Assembly (NCBI GenBank): GCA_041662525.1
Contig: JBAZSF010000001.1
Coordinates: forward strand, 41,383 to 105,382
DNA length: 64,000 nucleotides
Reading direction: 5' to 3'
Origin: Minisyncoccota bacterium
GTDB lineage: Bacteria > Patescibacteriota > Minisyncoccia > Phycocordibacterales > UBA9973
Both the position numbers and the translations under genes were made by a program. The notes beneath the pieces were generated by a model. That model saw nothing but the letters and a program-made list of their open reading frames with translations, made no database searches and was not told the origin of the DNA. Positions 13,980 through 53,292 of this stretch are shown one piece after another (positions within the stretch are counted from its first letter, which is position 1; each line of letters starts with the position of its first letter).

Positions 13980-16967
13980 ATGATTTCCCGAATATATGTA
14001 GCGTCCAAAGGAAAAGCTGACTTTATTAACTCTTACTTAATTTCCCATAAGTTGGGGAATGACAAAATCCTGAAAATCGCGGAAGCTCTAACAAACCCTA
14101 TCCTTGAAGAATTTTCTATAAATAAATTCCCAGCGACAGCTAAATTTTCTTATGCCATAGAAATAGGTTTCAAGCCAGGAGTCACAGACAATGTCGGGCA
14201 TACTGTGGAGGAAACTATTATGGACTTATTGCATATTGCTCCGGACGTTGGACGTCGGGGATTCGGACGTCCAACGTCCGGAGCTGATTTAGCAGTTTAT
14301 ACTTCTAAAATTTATTTAGTTTCTAATTCTAAAACAGAAGAGGTTGAGAAGATAGCTCTCTCGCTACATAATCCTCTGATTGAGCGTTCACATATCATAA
14401 GTATTTCTGATTTAAAAAAGAAAGGTTTACCATTAGAAGTTCCTAAAGTCATTTTGAAAAAGGCTACCCCAGTCATAAATGTCTCTCTTGATGTATCTGA
14501 CGAAGAACTTATAAAAATCGGTAGTGGAGGAATAATGGATGATAAGACAAAAGAAAGACGCGGTCCTTTGGCTCTTGATTTAGCGTCAATGAAAGTAATC
14601 CAAGAACATTTCAAAAAATTGAAAAGGGAGCCGACTGATATTGAGCTAGAATCTTTGGCACAAACTTGGTCTGAGCATTGCAAACATACTATTTTTGCAA
14701 ATCCTATCGATGACATCAAAGACGGTTTATATAAAACATATATAAAAGGCGCAACGAATTTAATTCGCAAACAAAAAGGAGCAAAAGATTTTTGTGTTTC
14801 TGTATTTAGTGATAATTCTGGAGGAATTATTTTTGATAAGGATTATTTAATTACTCATAAAGTAGAAACACACAATAGTCCTTCAGCTCTAGATCCATTT
14901 GGTGGAGCCATCACTGGCATCGTAGGTGTAAACCGGGACACAATAGGCTTCGGACTAGGCGCTAAACCGGTAGCTAATCTTTATGGTTTTTGCTTCGGTA
15001 ACCCTGAAGATAAAAGATCACTCTTTCGTGATAAAAATCTAACTCAAAAAATGCTTTCACCGAAAAGAATTATGGAGGGTGTAGTAAAAGGAATAAATGT
15101 TGGTGGAAATTGTTCTGGTATACCGACTCTTTCTGGTTTCGTTCGTTATGATGATAGATATAGAGGAAAGCCTTTGGTTTTTGCTGGTACGGTAGGGTTG
15201 ATTCCAAGAAATTTACCAGCCTCACCGAGTCTAGGCGGGCCCACCTTGGAAGGAAAAAAAAGGCTTTCACATCTCAAAAAAGCGCAAAACGGAGATTATG
15301 TCGTAGTTGTCGGAGGGAGAGTAGGTCTAGATGGTATTCATGGGGCGACTTTTTCTTCAGTGGTGATGGATTCAAGTTCTCCGGCGACTGCAGTGCAAAT
15401 CGGTGACCCAATAACTCAGAAAAAATTAAGTGATGCATTAATCAAAGAAGCGCGAGATCTGAATTTATATAACAGCATCACAGACAATGGCGCTGGAGGA
15501 ATTTCTTGTTCAGTTGCTGAAATGGCAAAAGAATGTGGCGGTGCAAAAGTTTCTTTAGAAAAAGTTCCATTAAAATACCCCGATCTTCGTCCATGGGAAA
15601 TTTGGATTTCAGAATCACAGGAACGTATGACTTTATCTGTGCCAAAGAAAAAATGGAATTTATTTAAAGAATTAATGGAAAAGAGAGGAGTAGAAGCTAC
15701 TATCATTGGAGAATTCACAAATTCTGGTAAATGTATTGTGGAATATTCTAATAAAAAAATCATGGATATTCCTATGGATTTTTTGCATGATGGTTTGCCG
15801 GAACAGCATTTATATACAAAACCCATTCAATTCACCTCTCCCCAAACCCCTCTCCATTATTTAGATAATGGAGAGGGGAAAGCAAGGGGTGAGGATTATA
15901 CGAAAGCCTTAGAAAAATTACTCGGTAGTAAAAATATCAGTGGATTTTCTTTTATTTCAGAGCAGTATGATCACGAAGTTCAAGGATCTTCTGTTTTAAA
16001 ACCACTCTCTGGACGAGGTCGTATCAATACCGATGCACAAGTTTTTCAGCCTGTTTTAAATTCAAACAAAGGAGTCATTCTATCTTCGAGCACTTATCCT
16101 TCATATGGAGACATTAGTACTTATCATATGGCCGCCTGCGCTATCGATAATGCTATTAGAAATACTCTTTGCGCTGGTGGAACACTTACACACTTAGCAA
16201 TTTTGGACAATTTCTGCTGGTGTTCATCCTATGATCAAACACGTTTAGCACAGCTCGTAGATTCAGTAAAAGCTTGTTACGACTATGCCGTCGGTTATGG
16301 AACACCCTTTATTTCTGGTAAGGATAGTATGTTTAATGACTTTAGGGGTTACGATAGTGACGGTAACCATGTGACTGTTTCTATCCCACCGACACTTCTT
16401 ATTTCAACGATTAGTGTTATGCCCGATTTAAATAAAACTGTTTCTCCAGAATTTAAAAATATAGGTGATATAATTTATTTATTAGGAGAAACAAATGATG
16501 AACTCGGAGGAGGAGAATATCTTAAAATGCTTGGAGCTATTGGCAACATTGTGCCCAAAGTAAATTTAAAAAAGAATATCAAAACTTATCGCGCCCTAGA
16601 AAAAGCAATTCAAAAAGAATTAATAGTTTCGGCAATGTCTGTTAATTCTGGCGGGCTGGCTATAGCACTCGCCAAAGCATGCGTAGGAGGAATGGTTGGA
16701 TGTAATGTTTCCCTTGACCCCATAGGCAAGATCTATGGGGTAGATGTAAAACTTTTCTCTGAAAGTCAGGGAAGGATTTTAGTTTCTGTAAATCCTAAAA
16801 ATATTTTAGGATTTGAAAAATTAATGAAGAATATTTTTTATGCCAAGTTGGGCAAAGTGGCCAAAGATAGTAAATTTGTTATTACGGATGGAAATAAAAA
16901 GATAATTGAAACAAGTGTAAAAAAATTGCACGATGCTTATCATAAATTTTCTAACTCACAAAAATGA
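13980..16967 (+). CDS. purL: phosphoribosylformylglycinamidine synthase subunit PurL with ~180-aa N-terminal (PurS-like) extension
   Basis: REPTDIELESLAQTWSEHCKHTIF and THNSPSALDPFGGAITGIVGVNRD motifs. The FGAM-synthetase core starts at about residue 215. No glutaminase domain (a separate purQ follows). Confidence 0.9.
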   Translation: MISRIYVASKGKADFINSYLISHKLGNDKILKIAEALTNPILEEFSINKFPATAKFSYAIEIGFKPGVTDNVGHTVEETIMDLLHIAPDVGRRGFGRPTSGADLAVYTSKIYLVSNSKTEEVEKIALSLHNPLIERSHIISISDLKKKGLPLEVPKVILKKATPVINVSLDVSDEELIKIGSGGIMDDKTKERRGPLALDLASMKVIQEHFKKLKREPTDIELESLAQTWSEHCKHTIFANPIDDIKDGLYKTYIKGATNLIRKQKGAKDFCVSVFSDNSGGIIFDKDYLITHKVETHNSPSALDPFGGAITGIVGVNRDTIGFGLGAKPVANLYGFCFGNPEDKRSLFRDKNLTQKMLSPKRIMEGVVKGINVGGNCSGIPTLSGFVRYDDRYRGKPLVFAGTVGLIPRNLPASPSLGGPTLEGKKRLSHLKKAQNGDYVVVVGGRVGLDGIHGATFSSVVMDSSSPATAVQIGDPITQKKLSDALIKEARDLNLYNSITDNGAGGISCSVAEMAKECGGAKVSLEKVPLKYPDLRPWEIWISESQERMTLSVPKKKWNLFKELMEKRGVEATIIGEFTNSGKCIVEYSNKKIMDIPMDFLHDGLPEQHLYTKPIQFTSPQTPLHYLDNGEGKARGEDYTKALEKLLGSKNISGFSFISEQYDHEVQGSSVLKPLSGRGRINTDAQVFQPVLNSNKGVILSSSTYPSYGDISTYHMAACAIDNAIRNTLCAGGTLTHLAILDNFCWCSSYDQTRLAQLVDSVKACYDYAVGYGTPFISGKDSMFNDFRGYDSDGNHVTVSIPPTLLISTISVMPDLNKTVSPEFKNIGDIIYLLGETNDELGGGEYLKMLGAIGNIVPKVNLKKNIKTYRALEKAIQKELIVSAMSVNSGGLAIALAKACVGGMVGCNVSLDPIGKIYGVDVKLFSESQGRILVSVNPKNILGFEKLMKNIFYAKLGKVAKDSKFVITDGNKKIIETSVKKLHDAYHKFSNSQK
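14238..14284. repeat. 47-nt perfect GC-rich palindrome inserted in frame in purL
   Basis: gctccggacgttggacgtc-ggggattcg-gacgtccaacgtccggagc has a 19-bp perfect stem and encodes APDVGRRGFGRPTSGA within the N-terminal domain. Confidence 0.7.
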
Positions 16968-18748
16968 AAACAGAAACTAAACCACATTCGACAGGCTCAG
17001 TGTCTACAACCTGCCAAAACTGTAAAGAAGACTTCGTTATTGAACCGGAGGATTTTAATTTCTACGAAAAAATGAAAGTTCCAGCTCCGACTTTTTGCCC
17101 TCTTTGTCGAGCAGAGAGGAGGTTTGCTTTTAGAAACGAACGTAAACTTTTTAAGGTAAAAGATACTTTTACTGGTAAAGAAATTTTTTCATTATACCCA
17201 GAAGAAAGTGGCAGAAAAATTATTACTCAAGAAGAGTGGTATGGGGATGGCTGGGATGCGATGGAATATGCCCGCGAATATGATTTTTCTCGACCGTTTT
17301 TCGAGCAATTTTTTGAACTTCAAAGAGAAGTGCCTATTTACAATCTAAATGTACAAAGAATGATTAATAGTCCATATTCTGGAAACGCTACAGCGTTAAA
17401 AAACTGTTACCTCTGTTTTCATTCTAATTATACTGAAGATAGTATGTATGGCAGTGCGAATGATCATTGCAAAGATTGCGTGGATAATTCTCACATTCAA
17501 TATTCAGAACGATGTTATGAATGTTTTTGGTTAGAAAAATGTTATCAATGTTATTTTTCTATAATGTGTGGAGAATCACACAATCTTTTTTTATGTCGTA
17601 ATTGTTTAGGATGCAATGATTGTTTTGGCTGCGCAAATTTACGCAAATCCTCTTACTGTATTTTCAATAAGCAATATTCTAAAGAAAATTATTTTAAAGA
17701 AATAGAAAGTATGAAATTGAATACTATTTTCGGCTTAAAAAAAATGCGAGGTAAAGCTAGAGCCTTTTGGTTAACTCAGCCAACAAAATCTCAACATGGT
17801 CTTAAAAATTTAAATTCAACAGGTTCTCATGTTACACATTGTAAAAATGTGAATGATAGTTTTTTGATCAGAGGAAGTGAAAATATGCGTTACTGCCAAC
17901 ATATGCAAGTACCTGCGAATAAAGATTGCTATGATGTTTCTAATTGGGGAGAAAATACAGAACTTTCTTATGAGACTTTAGTGTGTGGTGAAAATGCCTA
18001 CAACATGAAATTTAGTTTCAATTGCTGGCCGACATGCACGGACAGTGAATACTGCATGGATCTCTTTAGTTGCTCAGATTGTTTTGGCTGTGTGGGTTTA
18101 AAGAAAAAACAATATTGTATTTTCAATAAACAATATACTAAAGAAGAATACTATCAGATAATAGAAAAAATTAAAAAACAAATGGATGATATTCCTTATA
18201 CTGACAAGCAAGGTCTTATTTATAAGTACGGAGAATTTTTCCCAATAGAATTTTCTCAGTCTGGATATAATAATACTGTCGCAATTCAACATTTCCCACT
18301 TACGAAAACAGAAGCAGAAAAAAAGGGATACCTATGGGTAGAAGCGCCCCAGAGTGAATATAGAATTACTATTAAATCATCCGAACTTCCGAATTCTATT
18401 CCTGAAGAAAATGAAATTTTAAAAGAAATTATAGAATGCGAGAATTGTAAAAAAGCTTATCGGATAATGGAAAATGAATTAATTTTTTTGCGTAAAGAAA
18501 ATCTGCCTCTGCCTGATTTGTGTCATGATTGCAGATATGATAGAAGAATAAAGGATAGACTATCGATCAGATCGTATGACCAATCTTGCATGTGCGGAGG
18601 AACTTTAGACGAAACTGGAATTTATAAAAATACCGTTAAACATCTCCATGCAGATGAACCGTGCGGAGAGAAATTTAAAACTGGACACGCTCCAGAAAAT
18701 AAAGAGATAGTTTATTGTGAAAAATGTTATCAACAAGAAGTTTACTAG
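16964..18748 (+). CDS. cysteine-rich multi-zinc-ribbon-like protein of unknown function (594 aa); paralog of 47951..49681
   Basis: ATGA start/stop overlap with purL. About 50 Cys arranged mostly as CxxC pairs. N- and C-terminal C-x2-C...CP-x-CR ribbons; two internal ~170-aa repeats ending YCIFNKQY(S/T)KEEY; CRNCLGCNDCFGC run. Confidence 0.75.
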   Translation: MKTETKPHSTGSVSTTCQNCKEDFVIEPEDFNFYEKMKVPAPTFCPLCRAERRFAFRNERKLFKVKDTFTGKEIFSLYPEESGRKIITQEEWYGDGWDAMEYAREYDFSRPFFEQFFELQREVPIYNLNVQRMINSPYSGNATALKNCYLCFHSNYTEDSMYGSANDHCKDCVDNSHIQYSERCYECFWLEKCYQCYFSIMCGESHNLFLCRNCLGCNDCFGCANLRKSSYCIFNKQYSKENYFKEIESMKLNTIFGLKKMRGKARAFWLTQPTKSQHGLKNLNSTGSHVTHCKNVNDSFLIRGSENMRYCQHMQVPANKDCYDVSNWGENTELSYETLVCGENAYNMKFSFNCWPTCTDSEYCMDLFSCSDCFGCVGLKKKQYCIFNKQYTKEEYYQIIEKIKKQMDDIPYTDKQGLIYKYGEFFPIEFSQSGYNNTVAIQHFPLTKTEAEKKGYLWVEAPQSEYRITIKSSELPNSIPEENEILKEIIECENCKKAYRIMENELIFLRKENLPLPDLCHDCRYDRRIKDRLSIRSYDQSCMCGGTLDETGIYKNTVKHLHADEPCGEKFKTGHAPENKEIVYCEKCYQQEVY

Positions 18749-18795
18749 CGTCGCGCTTTGATGGACGATTGCGCGACATGATTTCGTAAAATCAA
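18749..18795. repeat. conserved hairpin element GTCGCGC-(14)-GCGCGAC + CATGATTTCGTAAAATCAA immediately 5' of the purQ ATG; homolog at 33583
   Basis: Near-identical 45-nt element also precedes mrdA, with a compensatory T-A to C-G change in the stem. Confidence 0.65.
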
Positions 18796-19551
18796 ATGAA
18801 AAAAATAAAACCAAAAATAATAATAATGTCGGGATATGGACTTAATTGTGAAGAAGAAACAAAGTTTGCTTTTGAAAAAGTCGGAGGGCTTGCAGACATT
18901 GTACACATTAATGACTTAATTACTAAACCTAAAATACTTTCGGAATATAAAATATTAGTTTTCCCAGGGGGATTTTCTTTTGGAGATGATACTGGTAGTG
19001 GAAAAGCGTATGCAAATAAATTTAAAAATCATTTAGCGAAAGAATTAACTGAATTTCTATCACGTGATACTCTTACTATTGGAATCTGTAATGGATTTCA
19101 AATAATAACTAATCTAGGAATTTTACCCGGAGGGCTTACTTATAATAAAAATGGGCAATATATAGATAGATGGGTTGACTTAGAAGCAAAAGGAAACAGT
19201 CCTTGGCTCCAAGGGGTTAAAAAAATATCACTACCTATAGCGCACGGTGAAGGACACTACGTAATTTCTCAAAAAGAATACCTAAAAATGAAACAAAATA
19301 AGGAAATTGCTTTTATTTATACAAATGGAGAAATATGTAAGTTTCAAAACCTCGAGAAAAATCCAAACGGATCAGAACATGACATTGCGGGAGTTTTAGC
19401 ATATAATGGCAGAGTGCTCGGCATGATGCCACATCCAGAAAGAGCCATGTTTTCACATCAAAGTCCTACGTGGCAACTAAATAAAAAGGTTTCAAAAGAT
19501 GGAGTAGGATTACAGATTTTTAAAAACGGTATTAATTATTTTAAAAAATAA
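18796..19551 (+). CDS. purQ: phosphoribosylformylglycinamidine synthase subunit PurQ (glutaminase)
   Basis: GICNGFQI catalytic Cys; HGEGHY...MMPHPER triad region. Confidence 0.9.
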   Translation: MKKIKPKIIIMSGYGLNCEEETKFAFEKVGGLADIVHINDLITKPKILSEYKILVFPGGFSFGDDTGSGKAYANKFKNHLAKELTEFLSRDTLTIGICNGFQIITNLGILPGGLTYNKNGQYIDRWVDLEAKGNSPWLQGVKKISLPIAHGEGHYVISQKEYLKMKQNKEIAFIYTNGEICKFQNLEKNPNGSEHDIAGVLAYNGRVLGMMPHPERAMFSHQSPTWQLNKKVSKDGVGLQIFKNGINYFKK

Positions 19552-33320: not shown

Positions 33321-33593
33321 ATGGTATACCGTATATTAGCTTCCGTTTTACTTTTATTTTCAATACTTTTTATGCCTTTATGGGTGTCAGCTATTTTGGC
33401 ACTTGGAGGTATGGTTTATTTTAATATTTTTTGGGAAGCAGTCCCGCTATTTCTTTTGTCAGACTTACTTTATGGGGTAAAAGAAATAAAATTTAATAAT
33501 ATAATTTTTATTTCTTTTATTGCATCAATTATTATCCTAATAATCATAGAAATTATAAAAAAGAAACTTAAATTTTACCCAAGCCGCGCTTAA
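33321..33593 (+). CDS. small membrane protein, unknown
   Basis: 90 aa with 3 hydrophobic helices. Confidence 0.35.
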   Translation: MVYRILASVLLLFSILFMPLWVSAILALGGMVYFNIFWEAVPLFLLSDLLYGVKEIKFNNIIFISFIASIIILIIIEIIKKKLKFYPSRA

Positions 33594-33628
33594 AGGACGA
33601 TTGCGCGGCATGATTTCGCTAAATCAAC
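33583..33628. repeat. conserved hairpin element GCCGCGC-(13)-GCGCGGC + CATGATTTCGCTAAATCAA immediately 5' of the mrdA ATG; homolog of 18749
   Basis: Left arm overlaps the last codons and stop of the upstream ORF; the 3' tail is identical to the purQ copy apart from 2 nt. Confidence 0.65.
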
Positions 33629-35356
33629 ATGATAACAAGAATAATTAAAAAGAATAAATTAAAACACAAGAATTCCTTTGTAGAGCCCGATGAAATTTTT
33701 CTGGATTCAAAAAATTTACAAAATTTTGATCGTCAGCAATTTGAAGGAAGAATCGAACGCCCAATTTTAAAAAAAACTATTCTGATGTTGGGTATTTTGT
33801 TTTTATTTTTTACTGGAATTTTCGGGGCTCGTCTTGCTTATCTTCAAATTCAAAAAGGCCAAGCATATTTCAACCGAAGCCAAAATAATATGTTAGAAAA
33901 AACTATTATATTTACTGGTAGAGGTATTATTTACGACCGGAATAAAAAAGAACTAGTGTGGAATAAAAAAGAAAACCCAGGAACTGATGTGCTCAGAGAG
34001 AGTTCAGTTTCTCGTCCTCCCACTCGTGCATATTTATCACCAGGATTCTCACATCTTTTGGGTTATGTGAGTTATCCATCAAAAGACGATTCAGGTAACT
34101 ATTGGCAAGGTGAATTCATAGGCAAAGATGGATTAGAGAAAGAATATAATGATTTACTTAAAGGAGAAAACGGAGCAAAAATAATTGAAACAGATGCCTT
34201 AAAAAAAATATATTCAGAAAATATTGTAAATGCTCCGAAGCAGGGAAATGATCTAGTGACGACGATTGATGCCCGGGTGCAAGGAGAATTATTTAATCTT
34301 ATTAAAAATCTTTCAACTGATAGAACTTTTAATGGTGGGGGAGGAGTAATAATGGATGCTACAAATGGAGAGATAATAACTACTACGAGTTTTCCTGAAT
34401 ATAATTCCGAAATTCTTTCATTTGGAAAAGATGTATCGACTATTAATAGCTATCTCACTGACAAAAGAAAAGTTTTTGTAGATAAAAATATTTCAGGACT
34501 TTATACTCCTGGATCAATCGTAAAGCCCTTTTTTGCTTTAGGGGCTCTGACAGAAGGTGTAATTGATCCCTATAAAAAAATACTTTCTACAGGTTCTATT
34601 TCTATTCCTAACCCTTACTTAAAAGATCAAAAAACTATTTTTAAAGATTGGCAAGTAAATGGCTGGACAAATATGATGGAGGCAATAGCAGTATCTTCAG
34701 ATATTTATTTTTATGAAATTGGAGGAGGATTTGAAGACCAAAAAGGACTTGGTATAGCAAATATAGAAAAATATGCCAAACTTTTTGGCTTTGGAGATAA
34801 AACTGGAGTTGACCTTCCCGACGAAAAAAAGGGAACAATCCCAAGCCCAGAATGGAAAGCGTTAAACTTTAAAAATGATCCTTGGCGTGTTGGGGACACT
34901 TATCATACTGCCATCGGACAATATGGTTTCCAAGTAACTCCAATGGAAATGGCTCGAGCGGTAGGAGCTATTGCAAACAATGGAAAATTATTAACTCCAC
35001 ACTTGATATTAAATGATACTGTAAAAGAAAATCAAAATACTATAATAAATTTAAATAAAGAATATTTTGACACTATCCACCTTGGTATGAGAATGGCTGT
35101 AACTTCTGGAACTGCTGTCTCACTAAATATACCCTATGTACAAGTCGCTGCTAAAACTGGTACAGCCCAAGTTGGTCTAGCAAAAAATAAAGTGAACTCT
35201 TGGGTCATCGGTTTTTTCCCATACGATAATCCTAAATACGCTTTTGCAATAATGATGGAAGCAGGACCATCTTCTACTGGAACTGGTGCAGCTGCTTCTA
35301 TTATGCGTCAACTTTTAGATTGGATGTTCATCAATACTCCAGAGTACTTTAAATAA
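33629..35356 (+). CDS. mrdA: penicillin-binding protein 2 (peptidoglycan D,D-transpeptidase)
   Basis: SIVKPF (SxxK), SSD (SxN) and KTGTAQV (KTG) motifs; N-terminal TM anchor. Confidence 0.85.
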   Translation: MITRIIKKNKLKHKNSFVEPDEIFLDSKNLQNFDRQQFEGRIERPILKKTILMLGILFLFFTGIFGARLAYLQIQKGQAYFNRSQNNMLEKTIIFTGRGIIYDRNKKELVWNKKENPGTDVLRESSVSRPPTRAYLSPGFSHLLGYVSYPSKDDSGNYWQGEFIGKDGLEKEYNDLLKGENGAKIIETDALKKIYSENIVNAPKQGNDLVTTIDARVQGELFNLIKNLSTDRTFNGGGGVIMDATNGEIITTTSFPEYNSEILSFGKDVSTINSYLTDKRKVFVDKNISGLYTPGSIVKPFFALGALTEGVIDPYKKILSTGSISIPNPYLKDQKTIFKDWQVNGWTNMMEAIAVSSDIYFYEIGGGFEDQKGLGIANIEKYAKLFGFGDKTGVDLPDEKKGTIPSPEWKALNFKNDPWRVGDTYHTAIGQYGFQVTPMEMARAVGAIANNGKLLTPHLILNDTVKENQNTIINLNKEYFDTIHLGMRMAVTSGTAVSLNIPYVQVAAKTGTAQVGLAKNKVNSWVIGFFPYDNPKYAFAIMMEAGPSSTGTGAAASIMRQLLDWMFINTPEYFK

Positions 35357-42905: not shown

Positions 42906-44036
42906 CTATTCCTCATGACTCAAAGCTATATCCACTAGTTCTCGAGCTATTTTTTCAGCAGCGCCTTCTTTGTTGAAAGCTTTTGCATTTTGTGTCATTT
43001 TTTCATAACTTACCTTGTCTTCTATTATTCTTTCAATTTCTAAACTTAAAATATTAGCTGTCATATTATCTTCTTCAATAACACTACAAGCTCCAGCTCG
43101 TGCATAACTAAAAGCATTTTTTCTTGAGTGATCAGCATTTGAATTCTTAAAAGGAACTAAGATTGACGGCACACCCCAAGAAGCTATTTCAAATAAAGTT
43201 GATCCAGCACGAGAAACAATAATAGTAGCAACACCTGCCGTCATTTTCATTTGTAAAGAATTTAAAAATGGAAAAGGTAAATATCTTGCCTTGTTCTTAT
43301 TCTCTGCTAATATAACTTCCGCTTCTCCAGAAACTGTTTTAAATTTTTGAACTCCAGTTTGGTGAACAATTTGATAATTTTTTATTAATATTGGTAATGC
43401 ATCCAAAACAACATTATTTATAAGTTCTGCTCCTTGAGAGCCACCAAGTATAACAATAATAGGTATTTCTTCTTCTAATTTTAAATATTTTAATGCTTCT
43501 TTTTGTGGTGATTTATGCTCTATTTCAGTCCTTATGGGTTGTCCTGTCCAAGCGACAATTTCCTTTGGAAAAAAAACAGCAGCCTCAGCAAAAGACACAG
43601 CAACTTTTTTAGCAAAATGTCCTGCCCAAAGATTCACTCGTCCAGGAGCAGAATCTGATTCATGAATTAAAACAGGGATACGTAAAATTCTAGCTGCGAA
43701 AATCGTCGGAAAAGAGGCATATCCTCCTTTGCCAAAAACAACATCTGGATAAATTGAAAATAATTTAAAAATTGCATTAATAATACCAAAAAAAATTTTG
43801 AAAATATCAATAAAATTTTGAAATGAAAAATAAGTACGCATTTTCCCAGATACTATTTTTTCATACAAAAGTTCATTTTCAACAAGTATTTTTTTATCAT
43901 AAGGACTATCAGAAAAATAATAAAGTTTCGCTCCTACGATATGTTCCTGGTCTATTATTTTATTAACTTTTTGGGCAATAGCAATAAGTGGATAAAAATG
44001 TCCACCCGTCCCACCACCCGTAAAAACTATTTTCAT
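42906..44036 (-). CDS. murG: UDP-N-acetylglucosamine--N-acetylmuramyl-(pentapeptide) pyrophosphoryl-undecaprenol N-acetylglucosamine transferase
   Basis: MKIVFTGGGTGGHFYP N-terminus. Confidence 0.9.
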   Translation of the reverse strand: MKIVFTGGGTGGHFYPLIAIAQKVNKIIDQEHIVGAKLYYFSDSPYDKKILVENELLYEKIVSGKMRTYFSFQNFIDIFKIFFGIINAIFKLFSIYPDVVFGKGGYASFPTIFAARILRIPVLIHESDSAPGRVNLWAGHFAKKVAVSFAEAAVFFPKEIVAWTGQPIRTEIEHKSPQKEALKYLKLEEEIPIIVILGGSQGAELINNVVLDALPILIKNYQIVHQTGVQKFKTVSGEAEVILAENKNKARYLPFPFLNSLQMKMTAGVATIIVSRAGSTLFEIASWGVPSILVPFKNSNADHSRKNAFSYARAGACSVIEEDNMTANILSLEIERIIEDKVSYEKMTQNAKAFNKEGAAEKIARELVDIALSHEE

Positions 44037-44155
44037 CCCGTTAGAAGCAGATCGCGATCAACTCGCGTATCTGATGTTTTAAGTTATTAATTTTTTCTAT
44101 GTTTAATTTCATGTTTTGTTTATTTTTAAATTGCGATCGCGGCTTCTAACGGGAT
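44035..44155. repeat. 121-nt inverted-repeat element (termini ATCCCGTTAGAAGC ... GCTTCTAACGGGAT) exactly filling the ftsW-stop/murG-start junction
   Basis: Imperfect ~23-bp terminal inverted repeat around a ~75-nt AT-rich interior. Outer bases include the murG start codon and abut the ftsW stop. Confidence 0.7.
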
Positions 44156-45258
44156 TAATTATTTTTACGCTGAAATCTAGATATATTAAGCACAATACCC
44201 ATTGCCATCATGAAAACCATAAGTGAAGTACCTCCTTGACTCATGAAAACTAACGGCACTCCTGTCAATGGAAAAACACCAATTACAGAAGCGATATGCA
44301 TAAATGATTGTGCTGTAATTAGTATAACAATTCCATAAACTAAAAGTCCACTAAAAGCATCTGGAGAGCGATTAGCGATACGAAAACCACGTAAAATAAA
44401 AAACAAATAAAGAAATATTGTAATTATTGACCCAACAAAGCCCAATTCTTCACCCAAGACAGCAAAAATAGAGTCACCTTGTGGCTCAGGAAGATAACTA
44501 AATTTTTGAATACTTTGACCAAATCCACGTCCAAAAATACCACCTGATCCCAAAGCAATAAGCGATTGTTGAATTTGATAAGAAGACCCTTGCGCATCTC
44601 CCGATGGATTAATAAAAGTTTTTACTCTTTCTTGTAAGTATGGCTTAAAAAAAACTAGAGTTCCGAGTAGTAGAACTACTCCAAAGATTGTACCAAAAAT
44701 ATACTTTAAGGGAACACTAGAAATAAAAAGCATCGAGATTCCAGTAATAGAAATAAGAATAAAACTTTTTGTATCTGGTTGTTTTAATAAAACAAAAGCA
44801 ATAACTGTAATCATTATTAAAAATGGTAAAATTCCAAATCTAAAATCCTGCACTTTATTTTTTACCCACGACAACCAAGCTGCAAAATAAATAATAAAGC
44901 CAAATTTTAAAAATTCTACTGGTTGAAATTGAAAGGTTCCGATTTGTATCCACCTAGACGCTCCTCCATGACTCCATCCAAGAGTTGGAATAAAAACCGC
45001 GGCAGTTAATAATATGGACCCTAAAAAAAATAAAAAGGAAAATTTACGCCAAAATTTATAATTTATTTTAGAACAAAAATACATACCTAAAAATCCAAGA
45101 CCAAGACCGAGGACCAATTGACTAAAAAGCACTGAATAAAATATTTTTTCATTTTTTGCCAAAATTCCCAAAGAGGCCGAAATAAACATAGCCACTCCAA
45201 GGGCTAATAAAATAAATATAATTATAAGAAAAAATTTATCTACTTTTTTTTCTTTCAT
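44155..45258 (-). CDS. ftsW: SEDS-family peptidoglycan glycosyltransferase FtsW/RodA
   Basis: 10-TM SEDS topology with conserved SQGGTS motif. Confidence 0.85.
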   Translation of the reverse strand: MKEKKVDKFFLIIIFILLALGVAMFISASLGILAKNEKIFYSVLFSQLVLGLGLGFLGMYFCSKINYKFWRKFSFLFFLGSILLTAAVFIPTLGWSHGGASRWIQIGTFQFQPVEFLKFGFIIYFAAWLSWVKNKVQDFRFGILPFLIMITVIAFVLLKQPDTKSFILISITGISMLFISSVPLKYIFGTIFGVVLLLGTLVFFKPYLQERVKTFINPSGDAQGSSYQIQQSLIALGSGGIFGRGFGQSIQKFSYLPEPQGDSIFAVLGEELGFVGSIITIFLYLFFILRGFRIANRSPDAFSGLLVYGIVILITAQSFMHIASVIGVFPLTGVPLVFMSQGGTSLMVFMMAMGIVLNISRFQRKNN

Positions 45259-45379
45259 CCCGTTAGAGGTAGGAAATGCTCTGCATTTCCGTAGTTATAT
45301 TACTTATAATTAAAATTTTCAACATTAATTGTTTTTCTATATTATTTAAAATAATAAACTATACAACCTCTAACGGGAT
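45257..45379. repeat. 123-nt inverted-repeat element (termini ATCCCGTTAGAGGT ... ACCTCTAACGGGAT, 14-bp perfect) filling the mraY-stop/ftsW-start junction; second copy of the 44035 family
   Basis: Shares the 11-nt terminus ATCCCGTTAGA with the 44035 element. Contains an inner 8-bp hairpin ggaaatgc-tct-gcatttcc. The right arm ends at the AT of the ftsW start codon. Confidence 0.7.
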
Positions 45380-45382
45380 TCA

Positions 45383-46438
45383 TTACCTACTCACTATTGC
45401 TAAAATCACACCTACAATAGCAAATACAATTGAAAGAATCCAAAAACGCATTGTCACTTTATAAGATGGCCAACCAAGTGCTTCAAAATGATGATGAATA
45501 GGTGCTAATTTAAACAATCGTTTTCCTCCCCTTATTTTTTTTGAACATATCTGTAAAACGACAGAACCAGATGAAATCACAAGAGGTAGGGCAATAATGG
45601 GAAGAATTAAAACTGAATCAGTTAAAAATGCAAATGTCGCCAAAGTAATAGTTAGACCCATAATACCAGTCTCTCCCATATAAAATCTAGCAGGCGGAAT
45701 ATTAAACCAAAGAAATGCAAGAATCGCTCCAGTGATAACTCCTGAAAAAGCAGCGAGATCTATTTGATTATTGGCAAAAGCTATCGCCGAATAAGCGGCA
45801 AAAATGGACGCAAGTACTCCCCCTGAAAGTCCGTCTATACCATCGATTACTCCGCCAGAAAAAGTCGCTACTGCCACTATTATAAAAAATGGAATTATAA
45901 AAATACCTAAGTAAATATTTCCTGCAAACGGGATATGAATCGATGTCATACCTAGTTTATAAAAAAACCAAAACCCTATAAAAAGAGAAATAAGAGTCAC
46001 AAGAAAAACTTTCCATTTGCGCCATGATTTATCATCCCGAGCAAATTTTCCCGCACCATAAATTTGAATAAGATCATCCCAAAGCCCTAGCAATGAGCCT
46101 AAAAGGAGTGTAAAAAAAGGTATTAGAGTTTGGTTACGACTCAAGAAAGTCATTTTTTCTGTACTAATTGATGGAAAAAAATTTGATGCTAGAAAAAAAA
46201 GGATTGTAGTAAAAAGAACAGAAACCCAGATTATTATTCCACCAACACGGGGTGTTTTTAATTCTTCTTTTTCATTATGTACTTTATGAAAATCAGATGC
46301 AGACGTACCAATATTCCTAGAATATTTTTTCCACATTTTATATTTATAAAAAAAATGAGTAGCAAATGGAGTAAGCAAAAGACCTAAGAAAAAAGCAAAT
46401 GTTGTCGGCACAAAAATTTTAACTAAATTTAAAAGCAT
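45383..46438 (-). CDS. mraY: phospho-N-acetylmuramoyl-pentapeptide transferase
   Basis: LLGLWDDL and polytopic MraY topology. Confidence 0.9.
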   Translation of the reverse strand: MLLNLVKIFVPTTFAFFLGLLLTPFATHFFYKYKMWKKYSRNIGTSASDFHKVHNEKEELKTPRVGGIIIWVSVLFTTILFFLASNFFPSISTEKMTFLSRNQTLIPFFTLLLGSLLGLWDDLIQIYGAGKFARDDKSWRKWKVFLVTLISLFIGFWFFYKLGMTSIHIPFAGNIYLGIFIIPFFIIVAVATFSGGVIDGIDGLSGGVLASIFAAYSAIAFANNQIDLAAFSGVITGAILAFLWFNIPPARFYMGETGIMGLTITLATFAFLTDSVLILPIIALPLVISSGSVVLQICSKKIRGGKRLFKLAPIHHHFEALGWPSYKVTMRFWILSIVFAIVGVILAIVSR

Positions 46439-51020: not shown

Positions 51021-51884
51021 TTAAGCAATTTTAATCGTTAAAAGCATTAAGCCAATAATAATAAAAATAAATGAAATAATTTTGATTAACAAATGCTTCT
51101 CGTGAAAATATTTATTTCCTGAAATAATTGCTAATAAAACAGAAAAAGCTCTTTTTCCACTGGTAATTATAGAAGCAGGAGCATAAGCATATGCAATACC
51201 TAAAATAGCTCCCCCGGCTGCATTTGAAATCGATTGAATAAAAAAATTTTTCTTCAGAAGATAAATCAGTGGATTTTCTTTAAATTTCCACATAGACATA
51301 ATAAATAAAAAAATAATTAGAAAAATATGAGTGATGATCTGTTGGGCTTCGACAGAGTTATAATGTGTAATACAGTATTTATAAATAGAGATAGTTGCCA
51401 CAGCATTAATTGTAGAAAAAATAACATATCCAATTCCTTTTTTATTGATACCATGATTAAAAAGTAAAATAATGAGACCTAAAATTATTACTGAAATTCC
51501 AAATAAATTAAAAAAGTTTATCTCATATCCTAGAATAGTGTCTACTACGAGCAAAAGTGGTATTGTGCCGATCATTAAAAATCCAAAAGTACTACGATCA
51601 GCCTCAACTATCGCATGTAATGTACTATAAGTTTGCATAATTTCTAAAATTATTAATAAGGAAAGAATTGGTATTGACGCAGGATTAAATATAAAACTAT
51701 TTTTTATAATAGCGAGAATAATAAATATAAATAAAACCCAAAAAGAATTTAAAAAACCAAAAGTATAAATATTTTCTTTTTTGTTTAAAACTTCCCACTT
51801 TCCAAAAGATGAAGATATTTCATTCAAAAAAGTCCCTACAGCAGTTAAAATTATGCCGATCATATTAGGAAATATATTCCTCAA
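51021..51884 (-). CDS. 10-TM membrane protein (DMT-superfamily-like), unknown substrate
   Basis: 287 aa with about 10 hydrophobic helices in two halves. Confidence 0.45.
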   Translation of the reverse strand: MRNIFPNMIGIILTAVGTFLNEISSSFGKWEVLNKKENIYTFGFLNSFWVLFIFIILAIIKNSFIFNPASIPILSLLIILEIMQTYSTLHAIVEADRSTFGFLMIGTIPLLLVVDTILGYEINFFNLFGISVIILGLIILLFNHGINKKGIGYVIFSTINAVATISIYKYCITHYNSVEAQQIITHIFLIIFLFIMSMWKFKENPLIYLLKKNFFIQSISNAAGGAILGIAYAYAPASIITSGKRAFSVLLAIISGNKYFHEKHLLIKIISFIFIIIGLMLLTIKIA

Positions 51885-53292
51885 TAAATTTATATAAAAG
51901 TCTTACTGGGGTACCGAGGGCGCCCGTAGCTAGATTTTCCCCTGCCATAGGTGTCATCCTTGGAGCGATGTCTAAGTGCGCCCATTTTGGTATTTTCCCC
52001 TCTTCTTTTTTATTTTTAATAAATTGATATAAGAAAATTGCTCCGTAAATCGCTCCGCCGTAACGAGAATCTTTATTATGAACATTTGTGAAGTCTCCCA
52101 AAGATCCCTTTATCTCATTTTCATATTCTTCCCACATAGGTAAACGCCAAACATAATCTCCAGTTTTTTCTCCTGTTTCTTCAAGTTTTTTTGCCAATCC
52201 ATCATCATTTGTAAAAATAGCTGAAGCTCTCTCTCCGAGCGCTACTGCAGCGGCCCCAGTCAAAGTCGCAATATCTATTATCACTTCTCCATTATATTTC
52301 TCAGCATAAGTCAATGCATCTGCGAGAATCACCCTTCCTTCTGCATCAGTATTCAAAACTTCAATTGTAATGCCTGACATTGAACGAATCACATCCCCTG
52401 GTCTATAACTTTTTCCTGACGTCATATTTTCTACAGCAGGAATAAGACCAATCACATTCTTTTTTAATTTCATTTTTGCAACTAAAGCAATCGTGTGAAT
52501 CACCGCACTTCCACCGGACATATCCATATTCATACCAAGAAGTGAAGATGAAGGTTTCAAATTTATTCCCCCCGCATCAAAAGTCACTCCTTTACCGACA
52601 AGCACAATCGGCTTTTCACCTTTCTTGCCACCCCAATATTCCATAATAATAAATTTTGATTCTTCGTCTGACCCTCGTCCGACGGAAAGAATGGCTTGCA
52701 TTTTTAGATGCTCCATTTCTTTTTCCCCTAGCACAGTAACTTTGACGGGAAAATTTTTTACTGCTTCCTTCGCTTCTTTGGCTAAAATTTGTGGAGTCAT
52801 ATCACCGCCAGGCATATTGGAAAGAGAACGTGTTTTATTTACCACTTCAGCTATTACACTGCCTTTTAGAATAGCTTTTTCTGTTTCCTTACTAGCACCA
52901 GAAATAATAACTTCTTTTATAAGATTAAATCCTTCTTTTGGTGCCGTCTTGTAATAATTAAATTCATAATTGGCAAAATCAAGCTGAGAACCAATTATTT
53001 CTCCTAATTCTACATTAGAAAGTTTTATATTTTTAAATACAAGATCATTAAAATTAAAAGCTATTTTTTCTGTTTTGACGTTTTTTGCCATTACAATTAT
53101 CTTGCGTACAAGCAAAAAAAGCTTCCGTAAATTCATTTTTTCCTCCTTGTCGCATTTTAAATAAAGAGTTTTTACTCCGTTTTCCTTCACTATTTCATCT
53201 TTATTTTTAGAATGAATAGAAACAAAAAGAACCTCCCCTTTTATGTCTTTTACGTTATCTTTAAAAGTAATTTTCATTGATATATTATACAC
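51865..53292 (-). CDS. pepA: leucyl aminopeptidase (M17)
   Basis: NTDAEGRVILADALTYA signature. Confidence 0.9.
   Translation of the reverse strand: MYNISMKITFKDNVKDIKGEVLFVSIHSKNKDEIVKENGVKTLYLKCDKEEKMNLRKLFLLVRKIIVMAKNVKTEKIAFNFNDLVFKNIKLSNVELGEIIGSQLDFANYEFNYYKTAPKEGFNLIKEVIISGASKETEKAILKGSVIAEVVNKTRSLSNMPGGDMTPQILAKEAKEAVKNFPVKVTVLGEKEMEHLKMQAILSVGRGSDEESKFIIMEYWGGKKGEKPIVLVGKGVTFDAGGINLKPSSSLLGMNMDMSGGSAVIHTIALVAKMKLKKNVIGLIPAVENMTSGKSYRPGDVIRSMSGITIEVLNTDAEGRVILADALTYAEKYNGEVIIDIATLTGAAAVALGERASAIFTNDDGLAKKLEETGEKTGDYVWRLPMWEEYENEIKGSLGDFTNVHNKDSRYGGAIYGAIFLYQFIKNKKEEGKIPKWAHLDIAPRMTPMAGENLATGALGTPVRLLYKFIEEYIS

Follow-up and report, generated by a model that had tools for sequence, protein, structure and literature searches.

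Mycobacterial interspersed repetitive units (MIRUs), reportedly described by Supply and colleagues in 1997, are 40–100-bp repeats that lie in operon spacers at stop/start junctions, in one orientation relative to transcription. The small ORFs of MIRUs overlap the flanking stop and start codons, and the units form tandem arrays. The ERIC (IRU) and REP (BIME) sequences of enterobacteria are short palindromic repeats scattered through transcribed intergenic regions. ERIC, a long palindrome of 127 bp, is conserved between genera and reportedly affects mRNA stability. REP has a GTAG head (GT(A/G)G placed 5' of a 20–40-nt imperfect palindrome), occurs in hundreds of copies in both orientations, mostly 3' of genes, and flanks RAYT genes. 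The IS200/IS605-derived PATEs have neither terminal inverted repeats nor target duplications; they carry hairpins near both ends and show precise gain and loss and a strong strand bias. The translation initiation region of E. coli rpsA is structured and lacks a Shine–Dalgarno (SD) sequence, with hairpins upstream of the AUG and GGA in an apical loop. Moreover, chloroplast intercistronic expression elements and mitochondrial tRNA punctuation are short structured intercistronic spacers of leaderless or processed mRNAs; PPR-type proteins bind them, or RNase P/Z cuts them at genuine tRNAs.

The element described here is an undescribed, dispersed family of about 50 nt with two hairpins that belongs to Paceibacteria (Patescibacteria/CPR). 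In its workings, it is closest to MIRU, ERIC or REP-type intergenic repeats together with IS200/IS605-derived hairpin elements. The stop/start position and the single orientation are shared with MIRUs, but the frame of its ATG is inconsistent, its copies are mostly single and it has two hairpins. Unlike ERIC, it is low in copy number, occurs in one orientation and abuts the start codon. The REP head test gave a 5' flank consensus of AGCG and a loop of 13–14 nt, with no GTAG head. The first-pass annotation, which had proposed either a REP-like element or a shared translational/processing signal, was right about a dispersed repeat family (84 canonical copies, approximately 64 genomes), but several REP-defining features are absent: besides the head, these are the high copy number, the occurrence in both orientations and the position mostly 3' of genes. 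MITEs differ from the element, which has no terminal inverted repeats or target-site duplication. Like PATEs, it has hairpins near both ends, precise gain and loss and a strong strand bias, but its two hairpins are dissimilar, it is far smaller, no transposase or target motif was found for it, and Y1 genes in the sampled loci were not adjacent to it. The rpsA leader, which like the element has hairpins before an SD-less AUG, belongs to a single gene and is not dispersed, and in the present element GAC rather than GGA is best conserved. In comparison with the organellar systems, cleavage of the element would be hypothetical. The unusual trait is the adjacency to the start codon in combination with sequence conservation across species.

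The window, i.e., the whole 64-kb stretch of DNA that was analysed, belongs to a Paceibacterota genome according to protein matches and contains two copies, both on the + strand. Copy 1 lies at the purQ/purL junction, where a 594-aa ORF (16964–18748, +) is placed between purL and purQ. This ORF ends in TAG (18746–18748), followed by C at 18749; the last two bases of the stop and this C form the conserved 5' flank AGC (18747–18749; AGCG in the family consensus, alignment A2). Hairpin 1 (18750–18777) has a 7-bp G+C stem (GTCGCGC at 18750–18756 and GCGCGAC at 18771–18777) and a 14-nt loop, TTTGATGGACGATT. Positions 18778–18795 hold a linker A, hairpin 2 (TGATTT at 18779–18784, CGTA, AAATCA at 18789–18794) and a spacer A, and the purQ ATG (18796–18798; GATase_5) is located 1 nt past hairpin 2. 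In copy 2, hairpin 1 (33583–33609) is composed of the stem GCCGCGC (33583–33589) and GCGCGGC (33603–33609) with the 13-nt loop TTAAAGGACGATT, and the upstream stop TAA of a 90-aa ORF (33591–33593) lies inside this loop. A linker A, hairpin 2 (TGATTT at 33611–33616, CGCT, AAATCA at 33621–33626) and the 2-nt spacer AC occupy 33610–33628, and the ATG of a PBP2-type transpeptidase gene, assigned by a Pfam match, follows at 33629–33631. The flanking genes were identified by Pfam as purL, purQ, purF, purC, purB and PBP2.

The pattern CGCGC-N10-18-GCGCG occurred twice in the 64-kb window, compared with 0.01 expected from shuffles, and GGACGATTGCGCG had two exact occurrences. With filters off, the covariance model detected only these two copies in the 64 kb (81.9 and 68.7 bits; next 14.9); the scores are not independent evidence because the model was built including both. 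The G+C content in 2-kb windows was 30–38%, so the G+C stem is conspicuous. The flanks of the two copies are unrelated and show no duplication. RNA folding predicted that the 3' tail is a second hairpin, 6 bp long and A-U-rich. The promoter scan gave no sigma-70-type promoter inside either copy, the TAAAAT ending 3 nt before the ATG, and the terminator scan gave no intrinsic terminator at either site, with no T-run after either hairpin. No SD sequence exists in the element, in which positions −2 to −17 are UGAUUU-loop-AAAUCA. The first-pass annotation was correct that both copies are present, although its start at 18749 is one base before the stem, and that neither has an SD or a U-tract, which excludes a terminator; the two copies are the sole ones in the window. 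Its placement of both between an upstream stop and the ATG is accurate for copy 1 but not for copy 2, whose upstream stop sits within loop 1. Its single G+C hairpin is real, but the element has two, the tail being hairpin 2. Its tiny ORF (MIS*) exists in copy 1 but is absent from copy 2 and is not conserved across the family.

The family was explored by scanning the exact pattern GGACGATTGCGCGNCATGA against a species-representative genome collection. The scan returned 91 stretches, ten of which were chance matches in G+C-rich genomes without the tail. The full element was found in 84 copies, including the two in the window, and the 82 others came from approximately 64 assemblies, so the family extends well beyond the window. 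The covariance model added about 12–14 diverged copies in 596 kb of carrier loci. The consensus at the RNA level was AGCG-GYCGCGC-yUUAAUGGACGAUU-GCGCGRC-A-UGAUUU-CGnn-AAAUCA-N-AUG, and that at the DNA level (alignment A2) was AGCG-GYCGCGC-yTTAAT-GGACGATT-GCGCGRC-A-TGATTT-CG(n2-3)-AAATCA-N-ATG. GAC, not GGA, was the best-conserved part. Nearly all carriers were labelled Nomurabacteria, Paceibacteria/Paceibacterota, Minisyncoccia, Parcubacteria, Adlerbacteria, Taylorbacteria, Magasanikbacteria or "Patescibacteria group". Some third-party labels ("Saccharibacteria", "Gammaproteobacteria") were unreliable; for example, the MurG of L041, labelled "Saccharibacteria", was 73% identical to that of a Nomurabacteria genome. 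Therefore, only Paceibacteria and close allies are claimed, and the host range, as judged from record labels and protein matches, appears to be Paceibacteria/Nomurabacteria and close allies. The copy density, extrapolated from 8-kb blocks around matches, was about 1 per 30–40 kb in the sampled carriers.

The element corresponded to no known signal among those compared. No Rfam 15 family matched at the gathering threshold or at E up to 10, and cmscan with permissive filters on 18600–18950 gave only noise for ribozymes (hammerhead, twister, pistol, hatchet and HDV-like). K-turn, T-loop, HDV-like and pistol-like folds, judged from the sequence, had no Rfam support and were rejected. The degenerate pattern with the true gap of 6 nt had 0 matches in viral contigs, and no match was found in the phage and plasmid collections. 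The matches L092–L123, which were obtained in the metagenome scan with GGACGATT-N7-CATGATTTCG, were discarded as chance, the N7 gap being one nucleotide too long. Neither form of the 13-mer (GGACGATTGCGCG or its RNA version) was found in the papers searched, and three papers that matched a shorter 11-mer were unrelated (plant chemistry, Salmonella and Pasteurella).

The base pairing of the element was well preserved, with 98.7% of the cells paired in alignment A2. The second pair of stem 1 was CG in 42 copies and UA in 36 copies of A2, with one exception, and a further count gave CG in 46–47 and UA in 45, with 2 exceptions. These counts agree with the compensatory T-A to C-G difference previously seen between the two window copies, which was confirmed on both. 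This pair was not linked to other variable columns and hence does not divide the family into two subfamilies. Double changes occurred in 9 of 13 pairs, compared with 1.1 in shuffles, in alignment A3 (A2 plus the diverged copies), which was fitted to the covariance model and is therefore biased toward structure. Hairpin 2 had the compensatory variants CGAUUU/AAAUCG (L028) and GAUUC/GAAUC (L062), and in L058 it was wholly replaced by a G+C hairpin. Stem 1 had an A-U outer pair at L053:3490 and a U-A inner pair in L050 and L090. The compensatory changes support both predicted hairpins, and the covariation analysis is in line with the earlier view that the hairpin is maintained. At the orthologous PBP2 junction of L128, the stem was ACCACAC/GUGCGGU, i.e., two G-C to A-U double changes and one A.C mismatch; by the author's count, such double changes are an approximately 10% chance event under random GC-to-AT decay and are only suggestive as support for pairing. 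In the loop of L128, three of the eight conserved bases were different, and the element had diverged about as fast as the flanking coding DNA. Mismatches of the G.U and A.C types numbered 7 and 9, respectively, so the folding strand (sense RNA, antisense RNA or single-stranded DNA) was not indicated. Extra tertiary pairing was also considered and rejected, mutual information revealing only one stem pair.

The position of the element relative to genes was examined with downstream ORFs of at least 40 codons and upstream ORFs of at least 60 codons. In 53 of 84 copies, an ORF-opening ATG (once GTG) was located 33–34 nt after GGAC, which is 1–2 nt past hairpin 2, so the association with start codons noticed in the window holds family-wide; an ORF-opening ATG was within 12 nt of hairpin 2 in 68 copies. 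A same-strand upstream ORF ended −3 to +17 nt from the stem in 45 of 84 copies, and its TAG often overlapped the conserved AGCG. The spacing was thus tight on the start side and loose on the stop side, and the element was usually the whole intercistronic spacer. All copies with a downstream ORF shared the orientation of that ORF. Some copies sat after terminators and TATAAT-like boxes, with the predicted 5' end of the transcript a few bases from hairpin 1. Approximately six copies had no downstream ORF and were followed by a terminator (L026/L082, L088 after fusA, L062 and L090) or were in tandem (L065 and L090); such orphan or tandem copies (L065, 255–386, −; L090, 2248–2832), some of them followed by terminators, could be small RNAs. 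The 70 downstream proteins comprised 84 Pfam families, which argues against a pathway-specific regulator; the products included S5 (four copies), pilin (four), EF-Tu (two), L35 (two), MurG, SecY, DnaK, GyrA, SHMT, CTP synthase, ATP synthase and others.

Stop codons in all three frames were read from the sequence of the element. The internal ATG opened MIS* in 21 copies and gave an extension in frame in 29, whereas the other copies had out-of-frame ORFs that differed in length. A conserved tiny ORF was rejected because its frame and length vary and because L028 has ACG in place of the AUG, the partner base having changed to match. Translational bypass of the T4 gene 60 or byp-like type was dismissed as well, the flanking ORFs being different genes. 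An identical purQ in a public record (P0001) was 241 aa long, compared with 251 aa from the element-adjacent ATG at 18796, and purQ homologues were 240–311 aa long. The choice of start near the element thus seems to vary between gene callers, which it misleads at purQ, where the database start is 10 codons downstream. The 594-aa ORF upstream of copy 1 has internal repeats with CxxC motifs (17618–17716 and 18077–18175) and no Pfam, NCBIfam or PDB match. Its position was occupied in L124 and not in L125–127, where purL and purQ overlap, and unannotated ORFs of similar size were seen at other pur-operon positions in L129; the ORF may be a mobile or recently inserted gene.

The conservation of the element was compared with its gain and loss. 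Copies at the same junction in different genomes (rplR–rpsE in four, murG, tuf, rpmI, miaA and two others) were 84–98% identical. Over the 31 positions not fixed by the search pattern, this identity was 88%, against 38–57% at the third codon positions of the adjacent genes; these pairs were all found via an exact 18-base match, which is an ascertainment bias toward intact copies. Copies within a genome were no more similar to each other than copies between genomes and hence gave no sign of a recent burst. The sampled copies shared approximately 17 pairs of junctions, compared with about 4 expected from a rough random estimate, and this excess reflects either common descent or hot spots.

The presence of the element among relatives was patchy. 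The purQ site was empty in L124, the closest relative, which has the same inserted ORF (585 aa) and reads TAA-AAAAAA-ATG, and in L125–127 purL and purQ overlap by ATGA. The PBP2 site formed a series in which the element was intact in the window, diverged in L128, a hairpin-2 remnant in L130 and L131, and gone in L129. Apart from this site, the relatives had 0 copies in 244 kb. At the rplR–rpsE site, the element occurred in four genomes and was absent from five of five relatives sampled independently of it; the ribosomal-protein operons of these five were chosen by S5 similarity only (80–85% identity) and contained no copy in 95 kb, and their spacers were 5–27 nt, A/T-rich and SD-free. Over all empty junctions (purQ, PBP2 and rpsE), the spacers were 4–27 nt, A/T-rich and without an SD. 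Carriers and non-carriers were interleaved in a 515-aa NJ tree without bootstrap. In the nested copy L023:2235–2330, the loop was interrupted by a second partial copy with its own compensatory stems. On comparing filled and empty sites, neither a target-site duplication nor a defined target site was found, and the two ends (AGCG... and ...AAATCA) do not form an inverted repeat. Y1_Tnp homologues (IS200/RAYT-like, HUH) were present in the sampled loci at 1.8–6 kb from any copy (L001, 170–592; L010, 3243–3611; L030, 21–563; L087, 569–907; L135, 19001–19675). In the 8-kb blocks around matches, four element-bearing blocks contained a Y1 gene and none had it next to a copy. The element strand was G-rich in 69 of 82 blocks, a bias that is confounded with the gene strand. 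The cumulative GC skew of the window peaked near 40 kb, where the gene orientation also converges, and this region may be the replication terminus.

The translation context of the genome was also explored. Most window genes had no SD, and a few had strong GGAGG sites. Many had TATAAT 6–8 nt before the ATG, e.g., upstream of 8309, 35392, 36438, 45383–46438 (−) and 51865–53277 (−), and the operon-internal genes mostly overlapped or had tiny spacers. This pattern suggests that the window genes may be expressed mainly from leaderless mRNAs; no CPR paper discussing leaderless or SD questions was found in the literature searched. Pairing of UGAUUU or GGA with an anti-SD was rejected because of wrong geometry in a hand check against the E. 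coli 16S 3' end. A tblastn search for a CsrA-type regulator with two CsrA sequences gave nothing credible in 0.8 Mb, a sampling too shallow to be informative.

Other repeats and loci were encountered in the same material. A second, unrelated insert family occupies the MraY/FtsW and FtsW/MurG stop-to-start gaps in the window (44036–44154 and 45258–45378; genes on the − strand). Its units are approximately 120 nt long with 13–14-bp terminal inverted repeats, (A)TCCCGTTAGARGY...RCYTCTAACGGGA(T); compensatory changes distinguish the arms of the two copies, the last base of the 3' arm is the A of the ATG, and the fold z-scores were −5.4 and −8.0. The gaps at these junctions are 9 and 3 nt in relatives, so the units are insertions; they are MITE-like and possibly have a TGAA duplication. 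The repeat end of this family was also found in L046, L031, L065, L066, L090 and L130. In the G+C-richer contig L058, hairpin 1 was canonical in three variant copies of the present element (426–487, 1391–1452 and 2223–2276). The first two have CGACCUC/GAGGUCG as hairpin 2 and lie after a repeated terminator module and before a TTGACA-type box; one copy also lies after an ORF that reads as GIY-YIG-like. The layout is reminiscent of a cassette array, in which hairpin 1 may serve a distinct purpose at the DNA level. In L132 (1174–2560), a reverse transcriptase gene (RVT_1) and a bAvd accessory gene, directly upstream of rpsN in a ribosomal-protein operon, look like a diversity-generating retroelement.

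The reading that we favour, with a probability of about 0.45, is that the element is a small, probably mobile, transcribed insert of stop-to-start spacers that is tolerated or kept because it is compactly folded. It would fill the few bases between the upstream stop codon (or promoter) and the next ATG in the orientation of the gene, and from this position and orientation it would most likely be transcribed as the entire intercistronic spacer or as a 5' leader. It would have arrived as a small non-autonomous mobile insert: copies are found at dozens of unrelated junctions, are gained and lost between near relatives and can be nested, and they show neither inverted ends nor target duplications. 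Transposition of a single strand by an enzyme that recognises hairpins would fit, a step that we infer because no enzyme was identified. Resident copies would then be tolerated, and in part selected, owing to their predicted folding into two compact hairpins. Given the stop codons in three frames, any upstream reading frame would terminate, and the AUG would be left 1–2 nt beyond a weak A-U helix, without an SD. Since unstructured A/U-rich or leaderless starts are usual in these genomes, initiation at that AUG could continue. In the window, the second, unrelated insert family likewise occupies stop-to-start gaps. The data show the family, its anatomy and position, the conserved pairing, the patchy presence and the lack of any known signal; mobility, transcription, and neutrality or benefit for translation are what we infer here. 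The absence of a linked transposase, of target duplications and of a defined target site, and the lack of a recent burst, speak against this reading. Moreover, a decaying selfish insert would not usually be so conserved, with the bias of the exact 18-base search pattern to be allowed for, and mere tolerance does not explain the exact 1-nt spacing to the ATG. Strict gene orientation, this spacing, conserved loops and in-place compensation together imply that the element either is highly specific for its target or has a role in the mRNA.

As an alternative, the element could be a dedicated host RNA signal for translation, either an SD-independent structured initiation region or a site at which a conserved protein, a ribosomal component or a small ligand controls initiation. 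The factor would read the conserved loop UUUAAUGGACGAUU displayed by hairpin 1, and the weak A-U hairpin 2 would set the position of the AUG as a spacer or switch. The strict co-orientation with the gene and the AUG 1–2 nt after hairpin 2 point to this, as do an element free of SD in a genome that uses SD at a few genes, and loop and linker sequences conserved besides the pairing, with variation in few columns and no subfamily structure. Same-junction copies are far better conserved than synonymous sites, many of the genes that follow have housekeeping roles or high expression (S5, EF-Tu, L35, SecY, DnaK, pilins), and the orphan and tandem copies (L026/L082, L088, L062, L065, L090) could be decoy RNAs. 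Nevertheless, such a role is unlikely, because the element is dispensable at rpsE in all five independently sampled relatives with their short A/T spacers, is missing also at purQ and PBP2 in relatives, and in L128 has altered loop bases and a divergence like that of coding DNA. The lack of a common function downstream argues against a specific riboswitch, and there was neither an Rfam family nor workable complementarity to the 16S 3' end of E. coli. Cleavage just after hairpin 2, by an endonuclease or by the RNA itself, would instead punctuate the transcript and release a leaderless mRNA from the AUG, and the hairpins would remain on the upstream fragment as a 3' stabiliser. The apparent reliance of the genome on leaderless starts is consistent with this, together with the single discriminator-like base between helix and AUG in most copies, the nearly invariable ATG start and the element being usually the complete spacer. 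Where a promoter-like box lies upstream, hairpin 1 is about 0–4 nt from the predicted 5' end, and known stabilising 5' hairpins lie near transcript 5' ends. However, a search relaxed to E up to 10 matched no self-cleaving ribozyme or other Rfam model, and RNase III needs longer stems. Genes with promoter-proximal copies could simply be leaderless, so that a cut would bring them no benefit, and the empty junctions of relatives do without any such signal; processing is thus distinctly unlikely. A signal in the DNA, either an alternative-sigma promoter giving a leaderless transcript or an operator on GYCGCGC-N13-14-GCGCGRC for a dimeric protein, would account for the fixed distance to the ATG, the roughly ECF-like spacing of GGAC ... 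CG(T/C) as read by eye and the hairpin 1 just upstream of a TTGACA-type box in L058. It is very improbable, because the near-perfect Y-R covariation of the arms within single genomes and the compensation in hairpin 2 point to paired bases and not to symmetric contacts with a protein. The window copies also lack a sigma-70-type site, the −10-like TAAAAT being only 3 nt from the ATG, and the sigma-54 spacing is off by 4 nt; the ECF-like and sigma-54-like readings of GGAC...CG and TGGAC..TTGC were rejected, since their spacing fails and the covariation is left unexplained. Finally, chance resemblance or a local segmental duplication, which the presence of only two copies in 64 kb might suggest, has practically no probability left: it was refuted by the family scan, with its 82 more copies in about 64 other genomes, and the window flanks are unrelated.

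Gene expression in CPR bacteria (Patescibacteria) is almost unknown, and an element at the starts of dozens of unrelated, often essential genes in approximately 64 species gives a concrete handle on it. Either a mobile insert has evolved into something innocuous at the point where an operon is most sensitive, as in the favoured reading, or the element is an SD-independent signal of a new kind for starts or processing. Use as a lineage marker is conceivable as well. It is possible, if doubtful, that the element is a portable translation-start module, in which a 50-nt structured RNA would recruit ribosomes without an SD in an IRES-like manner, or would be cut to release leaderless mRNAs, with a conserved factor recognising it and the orphan and tandem copies acting as decoys. 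If true, this would add a third mode of start-codon marking that has not been seen before, in a large bacterial lineage without experimental translation studies.
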